Part shown: positions 13,277 to 30,158 of the stretch, one piece after another | How the letters are laid out: every line of letters starts with the position of its first letter | How positions within the stretch are numbered: position 1 is the first letter of the stretch | Assembly: GCA_021821445.1 (NCBI GenBank) | Contig: JAKACK010000002.1 | Location: 3,224-67,223 of the forward strand | Direction of reading: 5' to 3' | Length of the DNA: 64,000 nucleotides | Origin: Candidatus Micrarchaeota archaeon | GTDB lineage: Archaea > Micrarchaeota > Micrarchaeia > Micrarchaeales > Micrarchaeaceae | Made by a program: the position numbers and the translations under genes | Notes under the pieces: model-generated | Databases searched by the model: none | Told to the model about the DNA's origin: nothing | The model's input: only the letters and a program-made list of their open reading frames with translations

Positions 13277-13472
13277 ATCATTATTATGTATCTCAATATT
13301 TATAAAGCTTTTGTAAAATTATTTGGATAAAATTGATTGAATAAATGCTACCTTATCGTTATATATTAGTAAACTTTTATTTAAAGGTAATATATAGACT
13401 TTTGACGAAAAATTTATAAAGTATAAAAGCTTTATACGTAAATAATACCTTATATTACATTCAGATGATTAA

Positions 13473-14567
13473 ATGGAGGATAAAACTAATAGAGAAACAA
13501 ATGATTTTATAACTTTTATGAAAGAACAAGGTAAACTAATTAATCAAAAATTAGAGGAATCTTTAGGAAATGAAAACTCTAAGCAGAATATTCAAAAATT
13601 ACTTGGAAGAGGAGGCTATAAATACGATAGCAATTCTATAGAAAAAAGTATAATAGATCCCGCATGGTATTTAGTTTCACAGGGAGGTAAAAGATTAAGA
13701 CCTGTATTTACTCTTCTGGTTATAGGACTTTTCAAAAAGGATTTTGATGATTATATTGAATTTTCTATAATACCTGAGGTTTTACATACTGGTACTCTTA
13801 TTCACGATGATATTGAAGATAAATCTATTAAAAGAAGAAATGCTGATTGTGTACATATTAAATATGGTTTGGATATAGCTTTGAATTTAGGAGACTTTAT
13901 GTTTTATTTCCCAATGAAAGCTTTAATTGATAGTGATAAATTATCAACTGAACAAAAATTAAAAATTACTAGAGAGTATATAAACGATATGTTAAAATTA
14001 GGTATAGGGCAGGGAGTAGATTTGGCGTGGCATAATTACTTAGTAAATATATCAGACATAAGCGAAGAAAATTATTTAAGAACTGCTTTTGATAAGACAG
14101 GAGCTTTGCTTGGATTTGCAGCTAAATTAGGTGCAATAATAGGAAATGCAAATGAAAAACAAGTTGAAGCACTTGGTAAATTTGGAGCTACGATTGGAGT
14201 ATCTTTTCAAATAAGAGATGATTATCTTAATATAGAAAATTCTAAAGTTTCGGACAGTAAAGGAGGTATAGGGGATGATATAACCGAAGGAAAAGTTACA
14301 TTGTTTGTTTTGCATGCTCTAAAATTAGCTAATCCGACAGATAAAAAAAGGTTAATTGATATCTTAAATTCTCATACATCTAATGATAAATTAAAAAAAG
14401 AAGCTTCAGATTTACTAATTAAATATAACTCAGACGGATATGTAAAAGATATGGCAGATTCTTTAATTGAAGAGAGTTGGAAAGAGATTGATAGTGCATT
14501 TCCAGATTCCCCATCTAAAAAAAGATTGAAAGAGATGGTTGGATTTATTTTGAATAGAAATTTTTAA
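13473..14567 (+). CDS. trans-Polyprenyl diphosphate synthase (IdsA family), copy 1
   Basis: GGKRLRP, HDDIED...RR, GQ..D, KTG, FQIRDDYL. Confidence 0.93.
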   Translation: MEDKTNRETNDFITFMKEQGKLINQKLEESLGNENSKQNIQKLLGRGGYKYDSNSIEKSIIDPAWYLVSQGGKRLRPVFTLLVIGLFKKDFDDYIEFSIIPEVLHTGTLIHDDIEDKSIKRRNADCVHIKYGLDIALNLGDFMFYFPMKALIDSDKLSTEQKLKITREYINDMLKLGIGQGVDLAWHNYLVNISDISEENYLRTAFDKTGALLGFAAKLGAIIGNANEKQVEALGKFGATIGVSFQIRDDYLNIENSKVSDSKGGIGDDITEGKVTLFVLHALKLANPTDKKRLIDILNSHTSNDKLKKEASDLLIKYNSDGYVKDMADSLIEESWKEIDSAFPDSPSKKRLKEMVGFILNRNF

Positions 14568-14577
14568 AGGTGTAATT

Positions 14578-15621
14578 ATGGATAAAATAGAAAATGTTGA
14601 TAGTTTTAAGGACTTTATAGCACTTTATAAAAATAGTGTATATAACAGGATAACAGATTATATGGAAGGTATAGAACCTGAAGCTTATATTGGTATGGTT
14701 AGATGTTATATTGACAGGAAAGGGCAATATAGAAGACCATCTTACGTATTACTTTGGAATTTACTTTATGGTGGTAAATTTGATGATGCTTTATTACCTG
14801 CAGCTTCACAACAGGTATCTGAAGATTGGCTTTTAATGATAGATGACTGGATGGATGATAATGATTTACGAAGAGGAGGTAAGTCTGCTCATCTTATATA
14901 TGGGGATAGATATGCTATCAATGCTGCAAGTAATTTACAAAGTATAAATTGGAAAATTGTTTATGATGCATGTAAACAATTAGGAGATCCAAGACAAAAA
15001 CGTTATTTTGATAAATTTTATGATATTATAAATGTGACACACCAAGGTCAGTATAGAGATGTACACTTAACAAGAGATGTAAAAGATATTACTAAATTTA
15101 CAAAAGAGGATTATTATGAATCTATACATGCAAAATCTGCTTATTATAGTGTTTATGGTCCTATGCAGCAAGGTGCTATAATAGCAGGAGCACCTGAAGA
15201 GGTAATAAATCAGATTAAAGAATATGGAACTCCAGCAGGATTGGCTTTCCAAATTAAAGATGATATACTTGATTGTACATCTACCCCAGAACAGCTAGGA
15301 AAATCTATAGGTACAGATGTAAGGGATGGTGTAAAGACTGTTATATTATGGAGCGCAGTTCAAAACGCATCATCAACTACGCTTAACAAAATGAAAGATA
15401 TATACATGAAGGATCCCAACCAAAAGACTAAAGAGGATATCTCTTATATATTAGATAAGTTCAATGAATTAGGTTCAATAGATTATGCAGAGAAGGAAAT
15501 GAAGGCTTTAATAGAAAAAAGTATAGATAATTTCAATAAATATACAACAAACATACAGGAATCTAATATAAAAGATCTTGCAAGAGAAGGAATAGGTTAC
15601 GTATCTAATAGAAAAAATTGA
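14578..15621 (+). CDS. trans-Polyprenyl diphosphate synthase (IdsA family), copy 2
   Basis: GQYRRP, IDDWMDD..LRRG, GQYRD, KSA, FQIKDDILD. Confidence 0.9.
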   Translation: MDKIENVDSFKDFIALYKNSVYNRITDYMEGIEPEAYIGMVRCYIDRKGQYRRPSYVLLWNLLYGGKFDDALLPAASQQVSEDWLLMIDDWMDDNDLRRGGKSAHLIYGDRYAINAASNLQSINWKIVYDACKQLGDPRQKRYFDKFYDIINVTHQGQYRDVHLTRDVKDITKFTKEDYYESIHAKSAYYSVYGPMQQGAIIAGAPEEVINQIKEYGTPAGLAFQIKDDILDCTSTPEQLGKSIGTDVRDGVKTVILWSAVQNASSTTLNKMKDIYMKDPNQKTKEDISYILDKFNELGSIDYAEKEMKALIEKSIDNFNKYTTNIQESNIKDLAREGIGYVSNRKN

Positions 15622-15629
15622 TTTATTTA

Positions 15630-15680
15630 GAGGGCCCATACTTACGTATGAGCCCACATATCTAGGGTTTAGGTATGCAT
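15630..15680 (-). ncRNA. Putative ~50-nt antisense sRNA
   Basis: BRE/TATA GAAAAAGTTTATAAATATT (15714-15696). 5' single-stranded GCAUACCUAAACCCUAGA. 3' 10-bp hairpin GGGCUCAUAC-GUAA-GUAUGGGCCC, whose G.U pair and GNRA loop exist only on the minus strand. Confidence 0.7.
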
Positions 15681-15845
15681 AACTATTTTTTAGAAAATAT
15701 TTATAAACTTTTTCCCTATGTAATGTTTTTGTTATAGAAAAACATATGTATATAGTAAAGTATAAATATATTTATTAAAATACATATAAACGAGGAATGC
15801 GATGACTAACGCAATATAAATAGTCCCTATAAAATATAGGCGTCT

Positions 15846-15881
15846 TCTAGGGTTTTAGGTATGTCTAGGGTAGTAGGTATG
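15846..15881 (+). repeat. Two tandem 18-nt repeats TCTAGGGT(TT/AG)TAGGTATG, each ending in an in-frame ATG; third copy at 15661-15677
   Basis: Read directly from the sequence. Confidence 0.9.
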
Positions 15882-16154
15882 GCAAATGAAAAAGAAGAAT
15901 TTGGAGAGATTTTGACTTTTCTTCTGTCGAAGAAAAACAAGGAATATTCGCTAGATAAAATGAAAGATCCAATACTTTTATTCAATAGTGATTCAAGGAC
16001 TAAAGAACAAATAATTTGGCTATTAAATGAGATAGTAGATGCCAAAAAAATAGCAGAAGCTTTAATGGAAAGCACACTTGAACAACACAACTACGAAATA
16101 AAAATAAAAGTAAATGGAGATTCGTTAGCTATGGAATCTATAACAACAGTTTGA
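15861..16154 (+). CDS. Hypothetical protein (97 or 91 aa; alternative ATG at 15879)
   Basis: Open frame with coding-like composition and upstream TATA (~15761). Family not recognised. Confidence 0.7.
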   Translation: MSRVVGMANEKEEFGEILTFLLSKKNKEYSLDKMKDPILLFNSDSRTKEQIIWLLNEIVDAKKIAEALMESTLEQHNYEIKIKVNGDSLAMESITTV

Positions 16155-16165
16155 TTTTTTTCTTT

Positions 16166-16687
16166 TTAATATTTTATTAATGATTTAATTGGATAATTAC
16201 CAATTTTTTCACGAGCACCTAACCCTTCCAATTCGATTAAAAATGATAATGCAGTTACATTTCCACCTAATTCATTGACTATATCTATAGCCGCTTTAGA
16301 AGTACCTCCGGTTGCCATTAAATCATCACAGATTATTACATTATCTCCTTTTTTAATAGAATCTGCATGCATTTCTATTGAATTTGTTCCATACTCCAAT
16401 TCGTAATCCTTAGTTATTTTTTTATATGGGAGTTTGCCTTTTTTTCTTACTAAAATTAATCCTTTATTCAATTTATAAGCTAGAGCTGCACCTAAGATAA
16501 ATCCTCTTGCATCTATAGATGCAATATAATCAAATTTTATATCTTTCAATTGATCTGCCATTAAATCAATTGCGGAATGAAATGCTTCATTATTATGTAA
16601 AAGTGGTGTTACATCCTTAAAAACTATCCCTTCCTTAGGAAAATCCGGTATATCTCTCACATATTTCTTTAAATCCTCTAGTCCCAT
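16166..16687 (-). CDS. apt: Adenine phosphoribosyltransferase
   Basis: IPDFPKEGIVFKD, DARGF, RKKGKLP, YELEYG, DDLMATGGT. Confidence 0.97.
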   Translation of the reverse strand: MGLEDLKKYVRDIPDFPKEGIVFKDVTPLLHNNEAFHSAIDLMADQLKDIKFDYIASIDARGFILGAALAYKLNKGLILVRKKGKLPYKKITKDYELEYGTNSIEMHADSIKKGDNVIICDDLMATGGTSKAAIDIVNELGGNVTALSFLIELEGLGAREKIGNYPIKSLIKY

Positions 16688-16751
16688 TTAATCACACTAA
16701 TATTTATTAGATAAAATTATAAAGCAATAATATGAAATTATAAATGATAAC

Positions 16752-17300
16752 TTGCTTGAATTTGACGATATAAGATTAGAGTGTTGCAAAGACGTATATT
16801 GCCCTAGAGAAGATTCATTTATATTAATGGATGCGGTTAAGCAATTTGCATTTGGATCTGTTTTAGATTTAGGTTGTGGAACAGGTATACAAGGTATAAC
16901 TGCACTAAAAAAAGGTCTGGATGTTACTTTTGCAGATATAGATAAAAAAGCGTTAGAATGCACAAAAAACAATATTAAAATAAATAGCTTAGAAGGAAAA
17001 GTAGTTGAAAGTAATATGTTTTCTAGCATTGATAAAAGATATAATACAATAATATTCAATCCGCCTTATTTAATTTCGGATAAACTTAATGCTATTGCAT
17101 TAGATGGAGGTAGAGAGGGTAGACATTCCATAGATATATTTTTATCGGAATTTAATAATTATGTACTTCCAGAACATATAATTTTATTGTTAGAATCATC
17201 ATTAAATAATTATTATAAAGATGTGAAAAAATATAATGCAGAGATTGTTCAAATAAATAAGAACTTTTTTGAAACTCTTGTTGTTCTTAAATTTAAATAG
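16752..17300 (+). CDS. HemK2/Mtq2-like N5-glutamine methyltransferase
   Basis: VYCPREDS, LDLGCGTG, FNPPY, DGGREG. Confidence 0.9.
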   Translation: MLEFDDIRLECCKDVYCPREDSFILMDAVKQFAFGSVLDLGCGTGIQGITALKKGLDVTFADIDKKALECTKNNIKINSLEGKVVESNMFSSIDKRYNTIIFNPPYLISDKLNAIALDGGREGRHSIDIFLSEFNNYVLPEHIILLLESSLNNYYKDVKKYNAEIVQINKNFFETLVVLKFK

Positions 17301-17348
17301 ATTAAAACTTATAAATATATAAAGGGACAAATCTATAATGGTGTTGAT

Positions 17349-17834
17349 TTGGTAGATCTTGAATTGGTTGATTTAAATAATGAAGATGAGATAGAATGTA
17401 TAATAGGTCAAGCAGGATTCATAAAAACTATAGAAGATTTATATGAAGCTTTAGTTACATCTACTCCTAAGATAAAATTTGGTATTGCATTTTCGGAAGC
17501 CAGTGGAAAATGCCTTGTTAGAAGTGAGGGTAACGATGATAGTTTAATTAAATTGGCAGAGGAAAATGCTTTAAAGATTGGTGCAGGTCACTCATTTATT
17601 ATATTTTTCAAAGATGCATTTCCTATAAACATATTGAATAATATAAAAAATGTACAGGAGGTATCTAGAATTTATTGTGCTACTGCAAATCCGATAAGTG
17701 TTTTAATTGTAAAATCAAAGCAGGGAAGAGGCATAGCAGGTATTATAGATGGTTATACACCAAAAGGAATTGAAACAGCTGATGATAAAAAGGATAGGCA
17801 TGATTTATTGAGAAAATTTGGTTATAAACTTTAG
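17349..17834 (+). CDS. Adenosine-specific kinase family (COG1839/DUF355)
   Basis: FIKTIEDLYEAL, FGIAFSEASG, GAGHSF, YCATANP, GRGIAGIIDG, FGYKL. Confidence 0.9.
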   Translation: MVDLELVDLNNEDEIECIIGQAGFIKTIEDLYEALVTSTPKIKFGIAFSEASGKCLVRSEGNDDSLIKLAEENALKIGAGHSFIIFFKDAFPINILNNIKNVQEVSRIYCATANPISVLIVKSKQGRGIAGIIDGYTPKGIETADDKKDRHDLLRKFGYKL

Positions 17835-17836
17835 AT

Positions 17837-18448
17837 TTACTTTTTGGTATAAATTATTCTTATAAAGTTGTGTTTAATTTTAATATTTTTGATATTTAAA
17901 TTTGCCTTATTGCCATAATTTATTAAATCGGATTTGTAAACCATATGTTTTTTAGCTAAAAAATATTCTATTTTTTCAGTAATCCCTTTACCTTTTGTTT
18001 TTAAAAATTCATAAATTATTATTTCACCGTTTTTATTTAAATGATGTGATAGGTATATAAGTGAACCCACTTTGTCATTCCAATGATGCATTGACAATGC
18101 ACTTATGATTATATCAAATTTAATTTTAAATGGAATATAAGTACTGCTACCTACATTGAAAGTTGTATTCTTTTGTTTATTTTTATTTGCAATTTCAATC
18201 ATATATAATGATGGATCTATACCAAATAGGTTTAAATTTTTATTTTTTAATGCCAAATCGTTAATTATATTTCCGGTTCCACAACCAATATCAATTAGGG
18301 TTTTAAACTTTCTTTTGTATAAATCAGATTCGACAAATTTATAAAATGAATTAATCTTAGTTATTTTATTTTGAAATATGGAATAAAGATTTGAAGTTAT
18401 ATATCCAAATTTTTCTTCGCCACTTTTATATAGATTTACTTTTTTCAT
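17837..18448 (-). CDS. Class I SAM-dependent methyltransferase
   Basis: IDIGCGTG, GIDPS, FDIIIS..SMHHW. Confidence 0.88.
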   Translation of the reverse strand: MKKVNLYKSGEEKFGYITSNLYSIFQNKITKINSFYKFVESDLYKRKFKTLIDIGCGTGNIINDLALKNKNLNLFGIDPSLYMIEIANKNKQKNTTFNVGSSTYIPFKIKFDIIISALSMHHWNDKVGSLIYLSHHLNKNGEIIIYEFLKTKGKGITEKIEYFLAKKHMVYKSDLINYGNKANLNIKNIKIKHNFIRIIYTKK

Positions 18449-19946: not shown

Positions 19947-19996
19947 TTTATGATATTTTTAGAATGAAAATATTTAAATCTAATTATGTGATTTTT

Positions 19997-21766
19997 ATGT
20001 TACTAGATAAATTATATTTATATTTTGATGATAAATTAAATAGTCTCAACAAGAATAAAAATACTAATAATATTAATATAGGCAAAACTATTTATAAATT
20101 ATATAAAAGTTCTAATATTAATATAGGGATTTATAGGAAACCTGATATTGATTTTTCTTATTTTTGGAAAAAAACGGATAAGGTTTGTAATATAATTTTT
20201 GAAAAAGAAAGAAATTCTAATGTACTTATTTCTGGTATGAGTGGATCTGGTAAGAGTACGGTTATGAAAGACATTTTATTACAATTATACAAAAATGTAC
20301 CTGTATTAATCATAGACCCTAATGGAGAATACGAGACTATTATCAATGAATTAGGAGGTAAATATTTAGATGCAGAATCTTACGCAATAAACCCTCTTTC
20401 TTTAGATGGGATTAGTGTAAATGAACGTATATCAGAGATTTCAACAACTTTTGAAAACTTATTTAATCTTGGAAGCCATCAGTCTTATAAGTTAAGACAG
20501 ATTATACATTATATATATAGAAATAAGGGTATTAGCAATTTAAATGAAAAAAGCATAGAAATAGAACCGAATATGACAGATCTTATAAATGAAATGAATC
20601 TATTTATAAAAAATTCAAATGTAAAACAGGAAATTTACTCATTATCTAATATGAAAAATAAATTTGAGTTAATCAACAATATAACAAGAAATGCAGTAAA
20701 TTTAGATATTAGTTTTATAACAAAAGGACTTTCAGGTTTAGGATTATCTAAAATAAAGGATGAAAAATTACGTTTCTTATATCTTCATGAATTATTTAAT
20801 AGGATATACAATATGATGCATGATCAAAGCATTGAACAAGGCCCTAGATTATATATTTTTATAGATGAAGCGGATACAATTGTAAGTGAAGATGTTTATA
20901 AGGAAACATTATCTAAATTCTTTGAAGAAGGTAGAAAGTATGGATTTGGTACTATTATTGCAACTCATCAAGTTTCATCTTTACCTAAACAAATGGTAGC
21001 TAACTCTTCAATTTTTATATCCTTTTACTCAAGGGAACCTACCGAATTAAACTATATATCAAATATCTATTCAGCATCTACAAATGAAACTAATCAGGTT
21101 ATAAAATCTATGATAAGTAGATTAAAGCAAAATCAATTTATGCTGTTATCTTATTCTAATAATAACCCAATAGTAGTGCAGGGTAAATCTTATAAAAATT
21201 TTGATTTAAGGCTAATAGATAATGATAGTGAAAACAATATAAACAGTAATAAGATTAAAGCTTATAAATACATTAAGGATAATTTAAGATACCCTGTTTT
21301 ATATTCTGATCTAATTAAGCAGCTTCCAGAAAATATTATACAAAATTATATAGATAAAGGTATTTTAGATCAGATATATATTAAAGATAAAAGATACGTT
21401 ATGCTTAAAAAAGGAAATGTTAGTATAAAACATGAAGCAAACATAGCATATTTTATAGATTTATTTAATAAGTGGGGAATAAAAGTTTACAAGGGATTTG
21501 GAAGTAATAAACCTGATATAATATGTAATATCAATAGAAAAAATATTGCTATAGAATATGAAACAGGAAAGAAAAATTTAGCAGATACGAAGAGAATGAT
21601 AGAAGGGAGATTCCCTTATTTTTATTACGTGATCATTATAGTTGATAATAACTATTATAAAATTTATAAAAGTTATCTAAAACGTAAAAATGTGTTTATT
21701 TTTGATAATAAAAATGAGAATAGTATAATTGAATTTATAACAGAGTTAAAAAAAGATAAAATTTAG
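19997..21766 (+). CDS. HerA/VirB4-like P-loop ATPase with C-terminal PD-(D/E)xK nuclease-like domain
   Basis: Walker A GMSGSGKS, IIDPNGEY, Walker B IFIDEA, EGRKYG...ATHQ. C-terminal KHE...KPDII...IAIEYETG. Confidence 0.82.
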   Translation: MLLDKLYLYFDDKLNSLNKNKNTNNINIGKTIYKLYKSSNINIGIYRKPDIDFSYFWKKTDKVCNIIFEKERNSNVLISGMSGSGKSTVMKDILLQLYKNVPVLIIDPNGEYETIINELGGKYLDAESYAINPLSLDGISVNERISEISTTFENLFNLGSHQSYKLRQIIHYIYRNKGISNLNEKSIEIEPNMTDLINEMNLFIKNSNVKQEIYSLSNMKNKFELINNITRNAVNLDISFITKGLSGLGLSKIKDEKLRFLYLHELFNRIYNMMHDQSIEQGPRLYIFIDEADTIVSEDVYKETLSKFFEEGRKYGFGTIIATHQVSSLPKQMVANSSIFISFYSREPTELNYISNIYSASTNETNQVIKSMISRLKQNQFMLLSYSNNNPIVVQGKSYKNFDLRLIDNDSENNINSNKIKAYKYIKDNLRYPVLYSDLIKQLPENIIQNYIDKGILDQIYIKDKRYVMLKKGNVSIKHEANIAYFIDLFNKWGIKVYKGFGSNKPDIICNINRKNIAIEYETGKKNLADTKRMIEGRFPYFYYVIIIVDNNYYKIYKSYLKRKNVFIFDNKNENSIIEFITELKKDKI

Positions 21767-21971
21767 ACTAATTAATTGATAAGTTTGTAATCCAAATTAT
21801 TCAAAAATTAATAATGAATATATAAAGATGTATTTTAATTTATATAGTGATTGACTTTATATTATTAATAATTTATTTTAGATTTAAAAATAATTAATTT
21901 ATTAGAAAATCTGGATTAAATGTTTATTTTTATTATCAAATTGATAATTTTTGATTAAAAAAGATGATAAA

Positions 21972-22904
21972 ATGTTAGATAATGACCAAAGTTGTGAAAT
22001 TAACCAATATGAATTAAAAGAAAATCACAAACTTGAAATTAATTATAAAAAAACCTGTGAATGTCCTGATAACCATATAAGTTGTATTGATGCTAAAACA
22101 TGGTTAAAATCTCAGGTAGCAATACAAGAATTTTATTATGAAAAAAGAGATATCAGAAATAAAAATATTCACCCTGCAACTTTTCCAATAGGATTACCGA
22201 AATTTTTTATAAATTTGTTAACACATGAAGGGGAGCTAGTTTTAGATCCATTTGGAGGATTAGGAACAACATTAATTGCTGCAAGGGATTTAAAAAGAAA
22301 TGCTATTGCCTTTGATTTAAAAAATGAATATGTGACTTATGCTAATAAGAGATTAAAAAATTTATTACCTACTAATTCTACTACACAAATAGAGATAAAT
22401 GATAATGCATTGAATATAAATGATTATTTATATGAAAATACAGTTAAATTAATAGTAACTTCTCCACCGTATGCTAATTTATTAAATCATAAAAGAAAAA
22501 ATAAAAGTAAAAGAGGAGATTTAAGGAAAGATAAATATTATGACAAAATACAGCAATATTCTGATAACAAAGATGATTTAGGGACATTAGAAATTGATGA
22601 CTTTGTAGATAAATTAGGTATGATTTATAAGAAATTATTTCCTTTATTGGTAGAAAAAGGGCATTCTGTAATAGATATAACAGATATATGGGATAATAGT
22701 GTTAAATATGGTAGAAGATTACCATTACATTTGAAAACAATAAATAAAATGGAAAGTATTGGATATGAACTTAGAAATATTATAATATGGGATAGAAGAA
22801 ATTTAATAAATAAGGTAGGTATATTTGGTTGGCCTAATAATTATATTACCTTAGGGACAACTTTTGAGTATTTATTGGATTTTTGGAAACCACCTAAGGC
22901 ATAA
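21972..22904 (+). CDS. Amino-DNA methyltransferase (probably m4C, SPPY type)
   Basis: HPATFP, VLDPFGGLGTT (motif I), VTSPPY (motif IV), IIIWD. Confidence 0.9.
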   Translation: MLDNDQSCEINQYELKENHKLEINYKKTCECPDNHISCIDAKTWLKSQVAIQEFYYEKRDIRNKNIHPATFPIGLPKFFINLLTHEGELVLDPFGGLGTTLIAARDLKRNAIAFDLKNEYVTYANKRLKNLLPTNSTTQIEINDNALNINDYLYENTVKLIVTSPPYANLLNHKRKNKSKRGDLRKDKYYDKIQQYSDNKDDLGTLEIDDFVDKLGMIYKKLFPLLVEKGHSVIDITDIWDNSVKYGRRLPLHLKTINKMESIGYELRNIIIWDRRNLINKVGIFGWPNNYITLGTTFEYLLDFWKPPKA

Positions 22905-23589
22905 TACCATTTAAAGAAAAATATTTCATATCTTTGCCTAATTCGTTAATATCTTTAAATCTTTTACCTTTTTTAGATTTAATGTAATCTAAGGTGCCTT
23001 TAGGAACATAACAATAACCGTTAGTATTTTTTAGGCTTTTATCTATGACATTTATATTTTCCTCTGTAAATTCTGTTGGTTGATTAAAAAAACCTGCTAA
23101 ACTATCACCATCAAATTTTAAACCTCTTGTACCTCTTTCCCTTAAGGAAACATTTTTAACTTCTATTCGGTGTATTTTGTTTTTATCCCCTTTATAGTAA
23201 ATAGTAAAATCGGTATGATTTTTTCTCCTAACATAATCCCTATCCTTTATTAAACCCTCTTTTTGAATTTCGTAATTTATACATAATTCTGCAATAGAAC
23301 CTGATAAAGGTTGTACAGATTGTCTAATTTTTATAGACACTTCTTCCATAAAATTGCTATACTCAATATTATTTACCATTCTTTTTTTAAGAAAAGCTTC
23401 TTTTATTTTTTCTTTATCCTCATCTGATATTTTTAAAGCTGATATAAAATTCTCGAGTTCGTATTTATAATATTTTTCTTTTTCTTTTATTAAAATTTCA
23501 TAAGTTTTTTTATGTAATTCTAATATATCATTTTCGTTTTTCAAATTTTCCAATGCTTTATTAAATATTTCTTCTGATGTTAATTTCAT
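22894..23589 (-). CDS. Putative type II restriction endonuclease (CCGG-family-like)
   Basis: QS...SG...E, TDFTIY, IEVKNVSLRER (K-x-x-x-L-R-E-R as in the Ecl18kI/EcoRII-C group). Convergent with and overlapping the MTase by 11 nt. Confidence 0.7.
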   Translation of the reverse strand: MKLTSEEIFNKALENLKNENDILELHKKTYEILIKEKEKYYKYELENFISALKISDEDKEKIKEAFLKKRMVNNIEYSNFMEEVSIKIRQSVQPLSGSIAELCINYEIQKEGLIKDRDYVRRKNHTDFTIYYKGDKNKIHRIEVKNVSLRERGTRGLKFDGDSLAGFFNQPTEFTEENINVIDKSLKNTNGYCYVPKGTLDYIKSKKGKRFKDINELGKDMKYFSLNGIMP

Positions 23590-28718: not shown

Positions 28719-28806
28719 TGGGCCTGGAGAGATTTGAACTCTCGACCTACGGCTTTCTTATTTACATTATAAGACCGCCGCTCTGACCATGCTGAGCTAC
28801 AAGCCC
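28719..28806 (-). tRNA. tRNA-Ile(UAU) with 13-nt 37/38 intron (28755-28767)
   Basis: GCGGT-CTTATA|intron|A-GCCGT. BHB central helix CUUA/UAAG fixes the anticodon as UAU. Acceptor GGGCTTG/CAGGCCC, discriminator A. Confidence 0.9.
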
Positions 28807-30069: not shown

Positions 30070-30158
30070 TGCGCCAGCCGGGATTTGGACCCGGGCCTCT
30101 GGCTTTTTTCATATAATATATGGGAAGCCAGTATCCTACCAGGCTAGATTACTAGCGC
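30070..30158 (-). tRNA. tRNA-Gly(CCC) with 16-nt 37/38 intron (30105-30120)
   Basis: Acceptor GCGCTAG/CTGGCGC, anticodon arm CTGGC-TTCCCA|intron|A-GCCAG. T-loop reads TCCAAAT. Confidence 0.9.

Follow-up and report, generated by a model that had tools for sequence, protein, structure and literature searches.

Organisation and distribution of the locus

The window (the whole 64,000-nt stretch of DNA analysed here) belongs to a Micrarchaeota genome of 840 kb and 29% GC, and the locus under study occupies a 240-bp gap with a polyprenyl synthase gene (14578-15621) on one side and an unannotated ORF (15861/15879-16154) on the other. Two divergent promoters lie in the gap (Table 1), the minus-strand one predicted to drive a small RNA and the plus-strand one an mRNA whose leader carries a predicted pseudoknot and two sites complementary to that RNA. 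The synthase gene is part of a tandem pair of polyprenyl synthase genes (13473-15621) immediately upstream of the module, and a polyprenyl synthase gene also adjoins the module in some other genera. Across contigs from four DNA runs and three studies no letter differs between positions 15454 and 16462, so the tandem sites are not an assembly error. A gapped 16-mer is found three times in the genome, where about 0.0006 copies are expected, and every copy is at this locus.

Table 1. Features of the module, with window positions and the basis of each assignment.
Feature	Position	Strand	Basis
Small-RNA promoter (purine-rich BRE and TATA)	15696..15714	-	Sequence and aligned TATA in relatives
Predicted small RNA of about 50 nt (inferred ends)	15626..15678	-	Fold z -5.2 and counterpart hairpins
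Antisense segment, predicted weak hairpin with AACCC loop	15656..15678	-	Folding and pairing energies
3' GC-rich hairpin, U.G pair, GUAA loop	15632..15655	-	Folding and compensatory changes
Protein-gene promoter AGTAAAG-TATAAATA, predicted start near 15791	15754..15768	+	Fixed spacing, alignment
Predicted 5' H-type pseudoknot	15798..15825	+	Covariation
Pseudoknot stem 1	15798-801/15810-813	+	
Pseudoknot stem 2 (loop 3 A-rich)	15804-807/15822-825	+	
Small hairpin preceding site 1	15826..15840	+	
Target site 1, ends in upstream in-frame AUG	15846..15863	+	Sequence
Target site 2, spans ribosome-binding site and conserved AUG	15864..15881	+	Cofolding
91-aa protein (97 aa counted from 15861)	15879..16154	+	No known family
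U-rich run, likely terminator	16155..16167	+	Sequence

With the window protein as query, we found relatives in 7 of 61 genomes; a 7-sequence profile then matched 66 of 129 family genomes, and the final profile matched 66 of 88 and 52 of 82 genomes in two families of one order, which we infer to be Micrarchaeales, with no match among 230 other genomes of the phylum that were searched. Among 1.84 billion representatives, a profile search gave 83 matches, while a search for related loci based on the deep alignment brought out no usable pattern. The comparisons use 72 loci from 21 genera, comprising 64 of the 66 profile matches and 8 of 10 further loci; those dropped lay inside a long unrelated ORF (G267), were truncated (G109), stood at a contig edge (G016) or had a short upstream region (G133). 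The same layout recurs over both families: a hairpin RNA with its own divergent promoter stands opposite a forward promoter, which is followed by the pseudoknot, the sites and the protein. The module is a single copy in most genomes. Second whole-module copies within one genome occur at L118, L107, L153, L209, L210/L211, L213 and L224, and in some of these the RNA has another seed, which fits the target of that copy and suggests insulated paralogous pairs. In the genomes searched from genera g19 and g27 we found neither the protein nor a strong leader match, and these may be module losses. Elsewhere in the window, two tRNA matches from Rfam (28719-28806 and 30070-30158; 88-89 nt, with a long arm or an intron) were missed by ARAGORN, and the genome contains two short ORFs (115-121 aa from the first ATG) with a TBP-like motif, G000:C37 near 66465 and G000:C3 near 31768, possibly a split or half-size TBP.

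The predicted small RNA and its probable pairing with the neighbouring message

On the minus strand, TTTATAAATATT begins at 15707. The copy at the 5S gene begins at 13306, which is 31 nt before the Rfam 5S start (13275), and this spacing puts the start of the small RNA near 15676-15678, in agreement with the original prediction, which had assumed a 5S-like distance. The core that the promoter was said to have in common with 5S is present, but its TATA 12-mer is not distinctive, with 15 copies in the genome where 6.7 are expected. Aligned over 46 loci, the minus-strand TATA has an invariant T11, and it stands 29-31 nt from the first GC-rich triplet of that strand in 58 of the 72 loci, a spacing that holds regardless of the direction of the upstream gene. 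Manual correction was needed for six of the minus-strand promoters and for three of the pseudoknot anchors. We also recovered the minus-strand hairpin with its G.U pair and GNRA loop, which folds with a z of -5.2 as against -3.4 for the plus strand. The proposed 17-nt 5' tail is indeed complementary to the target sites, but it is predicted to form a weak hairpin and is not free. A counterpart hairpin was picked at all 72 loci, where the RNA (predicted length 50-90 nt across relatives) usually has a hairpin at each end, the 3' one strong, with an exposed seed between them; in the genus of the window the seed is located within the 5' hairpin itself. Seven of the eight consensus pairs of the 3' hairpin show compensatory change, and several signals favour the minus strand: this hairpin is stronger on the minus strand at 47 loci, on the plus strand at 17 and tied at 8 (13 versus 5 genera), the loops most often seen when it is read on the minus strand are cUACGg (11) and cUUCGg (8), and its internal mismatches are G.U on the minus strand 11 times and on the plus strand 3 times. 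At L130 the leader and the ORF are present, but no GC hairpin lies within 550 nt upstream. A search for sequencing runs that cover positions 13400-18400 brought up no RNA run, a result that counts neither for nor against a transcript.

Both tandem sites exist as originally described, the first pairing over 17 bp with one bulge and the second over 8+8 bp, and so do both in-frame AUGs (15861 and 15879). For the ORF, given as 91-97 aa, both starts are thus available, but it is the second AUG (91 aa) that matches the starts of same-genus homologs, which have a single target site; relatives in general have one to three sites per locus, ending at the ribosome-binding site (RBS). Among 790 start regions the small RNA pairs best with that of its neighbour (-28.3 kcal/mol; next -20.8), and in cofolding it covers the end of site 1 and the whole of site 2, including the conserved AUG, at a net -14 to -17 kcal/mol. 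Over the 72 loci, the median energy of an RNA with its own leader is -28.0 kcal/mol, compared with -19.6 for RNAs from other genera, and at 58 loci no more than 5 of 100 shuffles were as good as the own pairing. The own RNA outdoes every other-genus RNA in only 26 of the 72 because a core such as UCUGGG is common to genera, and this type of core includes the Shine-Dalgarno word, itself under separate selection. The longest word common to RNA and target is 8 nt for own pairs and 5 nt for other-genus pairs; counted singly, 66 of 72 loci and 19 of 21 genera have an own word above the median for other genera. Where tail and target differ, the changes are biased toward G.U-compatible ones (62 versus 32), a bias that is borderline by genus (11 versus 3, p 0.057). 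All 72 RNAs reach -10 or better when paired to the last 25 nt, but this figure has no control and we do not count it as support. In a held-out test on 40 loci of the second family, chosen by the forward promoter and leader model alone, 36 had a divergent hairpin, and 20 of these 36 passed the shuffle test, some starts having been misplaced by the script. The RNA tail and its targets therefore change together between genera, as the original prediction had asked to be checked in related genomes, and no homolog without both RNA and repeats appeared across the relatives compared.

Comparative sequence thus points to a small RNA complementary to the neighbouring mRNA, as in antitoxin RNAs, and we consider it highly probable that it acts as an antisense silencer of that message. 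The earlier proposal of a "dedicated translational silencer" is well supported by the comparison as far as antisense silencing goes, but "dedicated" may be too narrow, because the leader is reused by restriction-modification loci.

The leader, the protein and the orphan leaders

The pseudoknot was absent from the original prediction. It lies a few bases from the predicted mRNA start, and there is one pseudoknot per leader. A forward TATA is present at each of the 72 loci and in 70 of them precedes the pseudoknot anchor by 45-50 nt. Over 71 distinct sequences, 85.7% of the cells are paired, seven of eight pairs are altered on both sides, and the covariation score was reached by none of 500 shuffles. 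Slid controls are paired at 27-41%, a comparison biased in favour of the structure because it was proposed from the same sequences. The own stem 2 is better than cross-genus combinations in 19 of 21 genera. Leaving the pseudoknot aside, the window leader is no more structured than its shuffles (z 0.09) and thus gives no evident sign that the RBS is sequestered in cis, as is typical for type I toxins; many relatives have a degenerate copy of the 3' hairpin of the small RNA just before site 1. Rfam gave no match for the module in the window. Other readings were considered as well. That of a DNA-damage operator was rejected, as radA has no AAAGTA-TATA element while genes without any relation to it do. 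A downstream strand that would unfold the pseudoknot is not a general feature, being significant in 3 of 68 module leaders, that of the window not among them, and in 9 of 24 orphan leaders. A type III toxin-antitoxin locus, in which tandem pseudoknot repeats that bind an RNase toxin, and a terminator, precede a ToxN, CptN or TenpN gene, does not fit a leader with a single pseudoknot, and none of these families is among the Pfam, NCBIfam or PADLOC matches.

The protein was described as acidic, soluble and different from a classic membrane toxin, and its pI of 4.9 and net charge of -5 agree with this. Among 65 homologs, 54 are acidic, a 19-residue hydropathy above 1.6 occurs in 1, and 64 have no membrane helix, so that the hydrophobic membrane peptide typical of type I systems is not what these loci encode. 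Across relatives the protein has 82-200 aa and 9-38% identity to the window protein, and the start Met is the only invariant position. Two AlphaFold models (pLDDT 92 for the window protein and 93) predict two long helices followed by a C-terminal beta-hairpin. As the original prediction held, the ORF is of an unrecognised kind: searches of Pfam, NCBIfam, PADLOC, PHROGs and PDB sequences gave no significant match, only isolated single-member ones. Fold searches gave nothing above background (best Z 5.7, no Foldseek E below 0.2), which does not in itself make the fold new. A resemblance to the small subunit of TFIIA was rejected as noise (E 1.2-2.7, TM about 0.2, and not among the matches listed for the second model). 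GnsA recurs weakly (profile E 0.18; Foldseek E 2.7 and 0.27), and E. coli GnsA (Pfam GnsAB_toxin) resembles the protein in its helix and beta-hairpin but is without the long second helix; homology was rejected, with a profile-profile probability of 4% and the GnsA family not found in five of five genomes. The ymcE-gnsA pair is listed as type II (PMC8484670). One homolog (L049:700-1065) has a 24-aa insertion with a CxxC motif between the helices. In 47 of 65 homologs the stop is followed, at no more than 70 nt, by a U-rich run, and beyond it a methyltransferase that is HemK-like by motif lies downstream in 30 of the 65 loci.

The leader also occurs on its own. Forty leader matches from outside the training set comprised 19 full modules with diverged proteins, among them second copies with their own seeds, one leader and ORF without the hairpin, and 20 orphan leaders. 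In 10 of these 20 the next sizeable gene is a DNA methylase or restriction-modification subunit, at a distance of 0.5-0.9 kb in two cases; in the others it is a PLD-type nuclease (1), a HerA-like gene (1), a 55-aa ORF with UvrD behind it (2) or a gene without identification (6). A model of the orphan leader returned 30 loci, of which 12 were new orphan leaders, preceding a methylase (8), a PLD nuclease (1), genes without identification (2) or a contig end (1); the four held-out loci without a hairpin lie upstream of three methylases and one HerA-like gene. One orphan leader is identical at 162 of 188 nt between two families while the downstream genes differ, which points to horizontal spread. 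Many orphan leaders retain a UUUCUGGGU-like site 3' of the pseudoknot, and at L165 and L174 the seed special to the host genus is present. When orphan leaders were paired with the RNA of their host, leaving out four loci without an anchor, 8 of 23 passed the shuffle test and the median rank was 10 among 26 genera, which makes trans control plausible only. We regard control of the restriction-modification loci in trans by the host small RNA as a tentative proposal with the odds somewhat against it; the data would equally suit loci that had simply captured a strong promoter together with a stabiliser. No orphan leader was found in the genome of the window.

The genes that follow portable leaders cover C5, N6/N4, D12, type I/IIG, type III and PLD nuclease genes (L159:1500-1660, L158, L160-L165, L168, L172-L174, L176, L178, L180, L186, L187, L212, L218 and L220), and such leaders often have a strand complementary to the pseudoknot downstream and an inverted repeat around the TATA box. 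Coding remnants of a helix-turn-helix kind stand beside the orphan leaders L122, L141, L145 and L160, and the same remnant precedes a methylase in the genome of the window (G000:C28 near 4189); we take it to resemble the C-terminus of a casposase, a likeness for which Pfam gave no support. At L139:506-818 and L143:635-799 the orphan leader is followed by a 55-aa ORF, presumably PC4-like but with no Pfam match at 1e-5, and then by the UvrD helicase. In the window itself, a HerA-like ATPase is followed by a DNA methylase and a probable endonuclease (19964-23589), near a tRNA-like stretch, and this methylase/endonuclease pair has no pseudoknot leader.

Possible functions of the module

The layout, the covariation and the strand signals are established by sequence comparison. 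Our main reading, to which we give a probability of about 0.7, is that this is a conserved Micrarchaeales pair in which the divergent small RNA silences the neighbouring mRNA at the RBS and start codon. The predicted RNA would base-pair over both and keep a small soluble protein untranslated, while the pseudoknot would make the mRNA long-lived or recruit ribosomes. If the small RNA turned over faster than the mRNA, a fall in its synthesis, for example on host loss, starvation or infection, would let the stored mRNA be translated, and mobile restriction-modification loci that adopted the leader would share the same control. The protein lacks a membrane helix, none of its residues is both catalytic and invariant, and it may for that reason be an oligomeric effector of growth arrest or dormancy that acts by binding another protein, an idea whose chances we put somewhat short of even. 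Such a module would work like the divergent type I toxin-antitoxin loci to which the original prediction compared it, zor/orz among them, and its own toxin-antitoxin nature is putative; non-membrane exceptions such as the SymE-like toxins exist among type I systems.

The closest parallels are tisB/istR-1 and timP/timR of enterobacteria, which likewise have a separate antisense RNA gene whose product pairs with the 5' leader, a pseudoknot within that leader in both tisB and timP, and a small protein (PMC7708055, PMC11228461). In those accounts the product is a short membrane peptide, whereas here it is a soluble, acidic protein of 82-200 aa whose toxicity is putative; the present module is also archaeal, places the RNA directly over the RBS, often with two sites, and has no sequence or Rfam relation to either system. 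Within the archaea, sRNA162 of Methanosarcina mazei is described as masking the RBS of a transcription-factor mRNA with a single-stranded linker and as having both a neighbouring and a distant target (PMC3510493), but it is unrelated in sequence, while our module has an RNA of about 50-90 nt, an order-wide distribution, a pseudoknot leader and a target of no known family. Antisense RNAs are also reported to control the EcoRI and Eco29kI restriction-modification operons (PMC3874152), there made from reverse promoters inside the operon, whereas here a portable leader would be read in trans by a chromosomal RNA.

Several alternatives bear on this reading. With a likelihood approaching, but not reaching, one half, the same RNA mechanism serves an ordinary circuit whose target is a non-toxic regulator or accessory subunit, such as a transcription or restriction-alleviation factor. 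The acidity of the homologs, their lack of membrane helices and the occurrence of the leader before methylase genes are in keeping with this, as is the single copy found in most genomes of two families, a near-universal chromosomal retention that is unusual for toxins; yet a dedicated divergent antisense gene together with a pseudoknot at the 5' end is how tightly repressed toxins are organised, and the identity among the proteins is low for a core subunit. It is much less probable that there is no minus-strand RNA and that the three repeat copies are same-sense protein sites on RNA, perhaps for the encoded protein, or DNA operators. The TATA boxes are nearly palindromic, the purines upstream of them differ modestly by orientation (4.9 versus 4.1 of 6), and the plus strand of the hairpin folds too, but the upstream copy keeps a minus-strand TATA at its fixed distance whichever way the upstream gene points, the UNCG loops are on the minus strand, the repeat word varies between genera and is still matched within each locus, and antisense pairing exceeds same-sense pairing in most loci compared.

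Slightly less probable again, and improbable on any count, is a ligand-sensing riboswitch to which the antisense RNA would be a second input. At the 5' end of the mRNA, a compact H-type pseudoknot whose A-rich loop 3 is conserved resembles the preQ1-I and SAM-II kinds in its features, and methyltransferase genes are frequent nearby, both downstream of the protein and after orphan leaders. Loops 1 and 2 have no conserved unpaired nucleotide, however, and their variability argues against a ligand pocket; moreover, stem 2 varies from 3 to 8 bp, the pseudoknot is clear of the RBS in most loci, and a comparison of 12 loci with Rfam at E up to 5 found nothing. Antisense silencing at the RBS remains the reading that we prefer.

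The module is real and conserved, and it is apparently undescribed. Literature searches at title and abstract level gave no description of it, in line with the original remark that no such system was recognised from DPANN archaea, and motif catalogues in supplements or subscription journals could include the pseudoknot; the same searches brought up no Micrarchaeota paper about a regulatory small RNA and no clear example of an antisense-RNA toxin-antitoxin system in archaea, which the module would be if its protein were toxic. It adds three new objects, the small RNA, the pseudoknot leader and the protein family, and offers a concrete connection of RNA control with the expression of restriction-modification genes. 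We think it unlikely that there is an order-wide regulon in which one chromosomal RNA governs all messages with the pseudoknot leader, the growth-arrest protein as well as mobile restriction-modification genes; were this true, loss of the RNA through host detachment or viral shut-off of transcription would set off dormancy and DNA defence at the same time. The usual view of genome-reduced DPANN archaea is that they regulate little. That a module with two RNA elements has been kept over two families in genomes of less than 1.3 Mb implies that it is central to the way these archaea live in dependence on their hosts.
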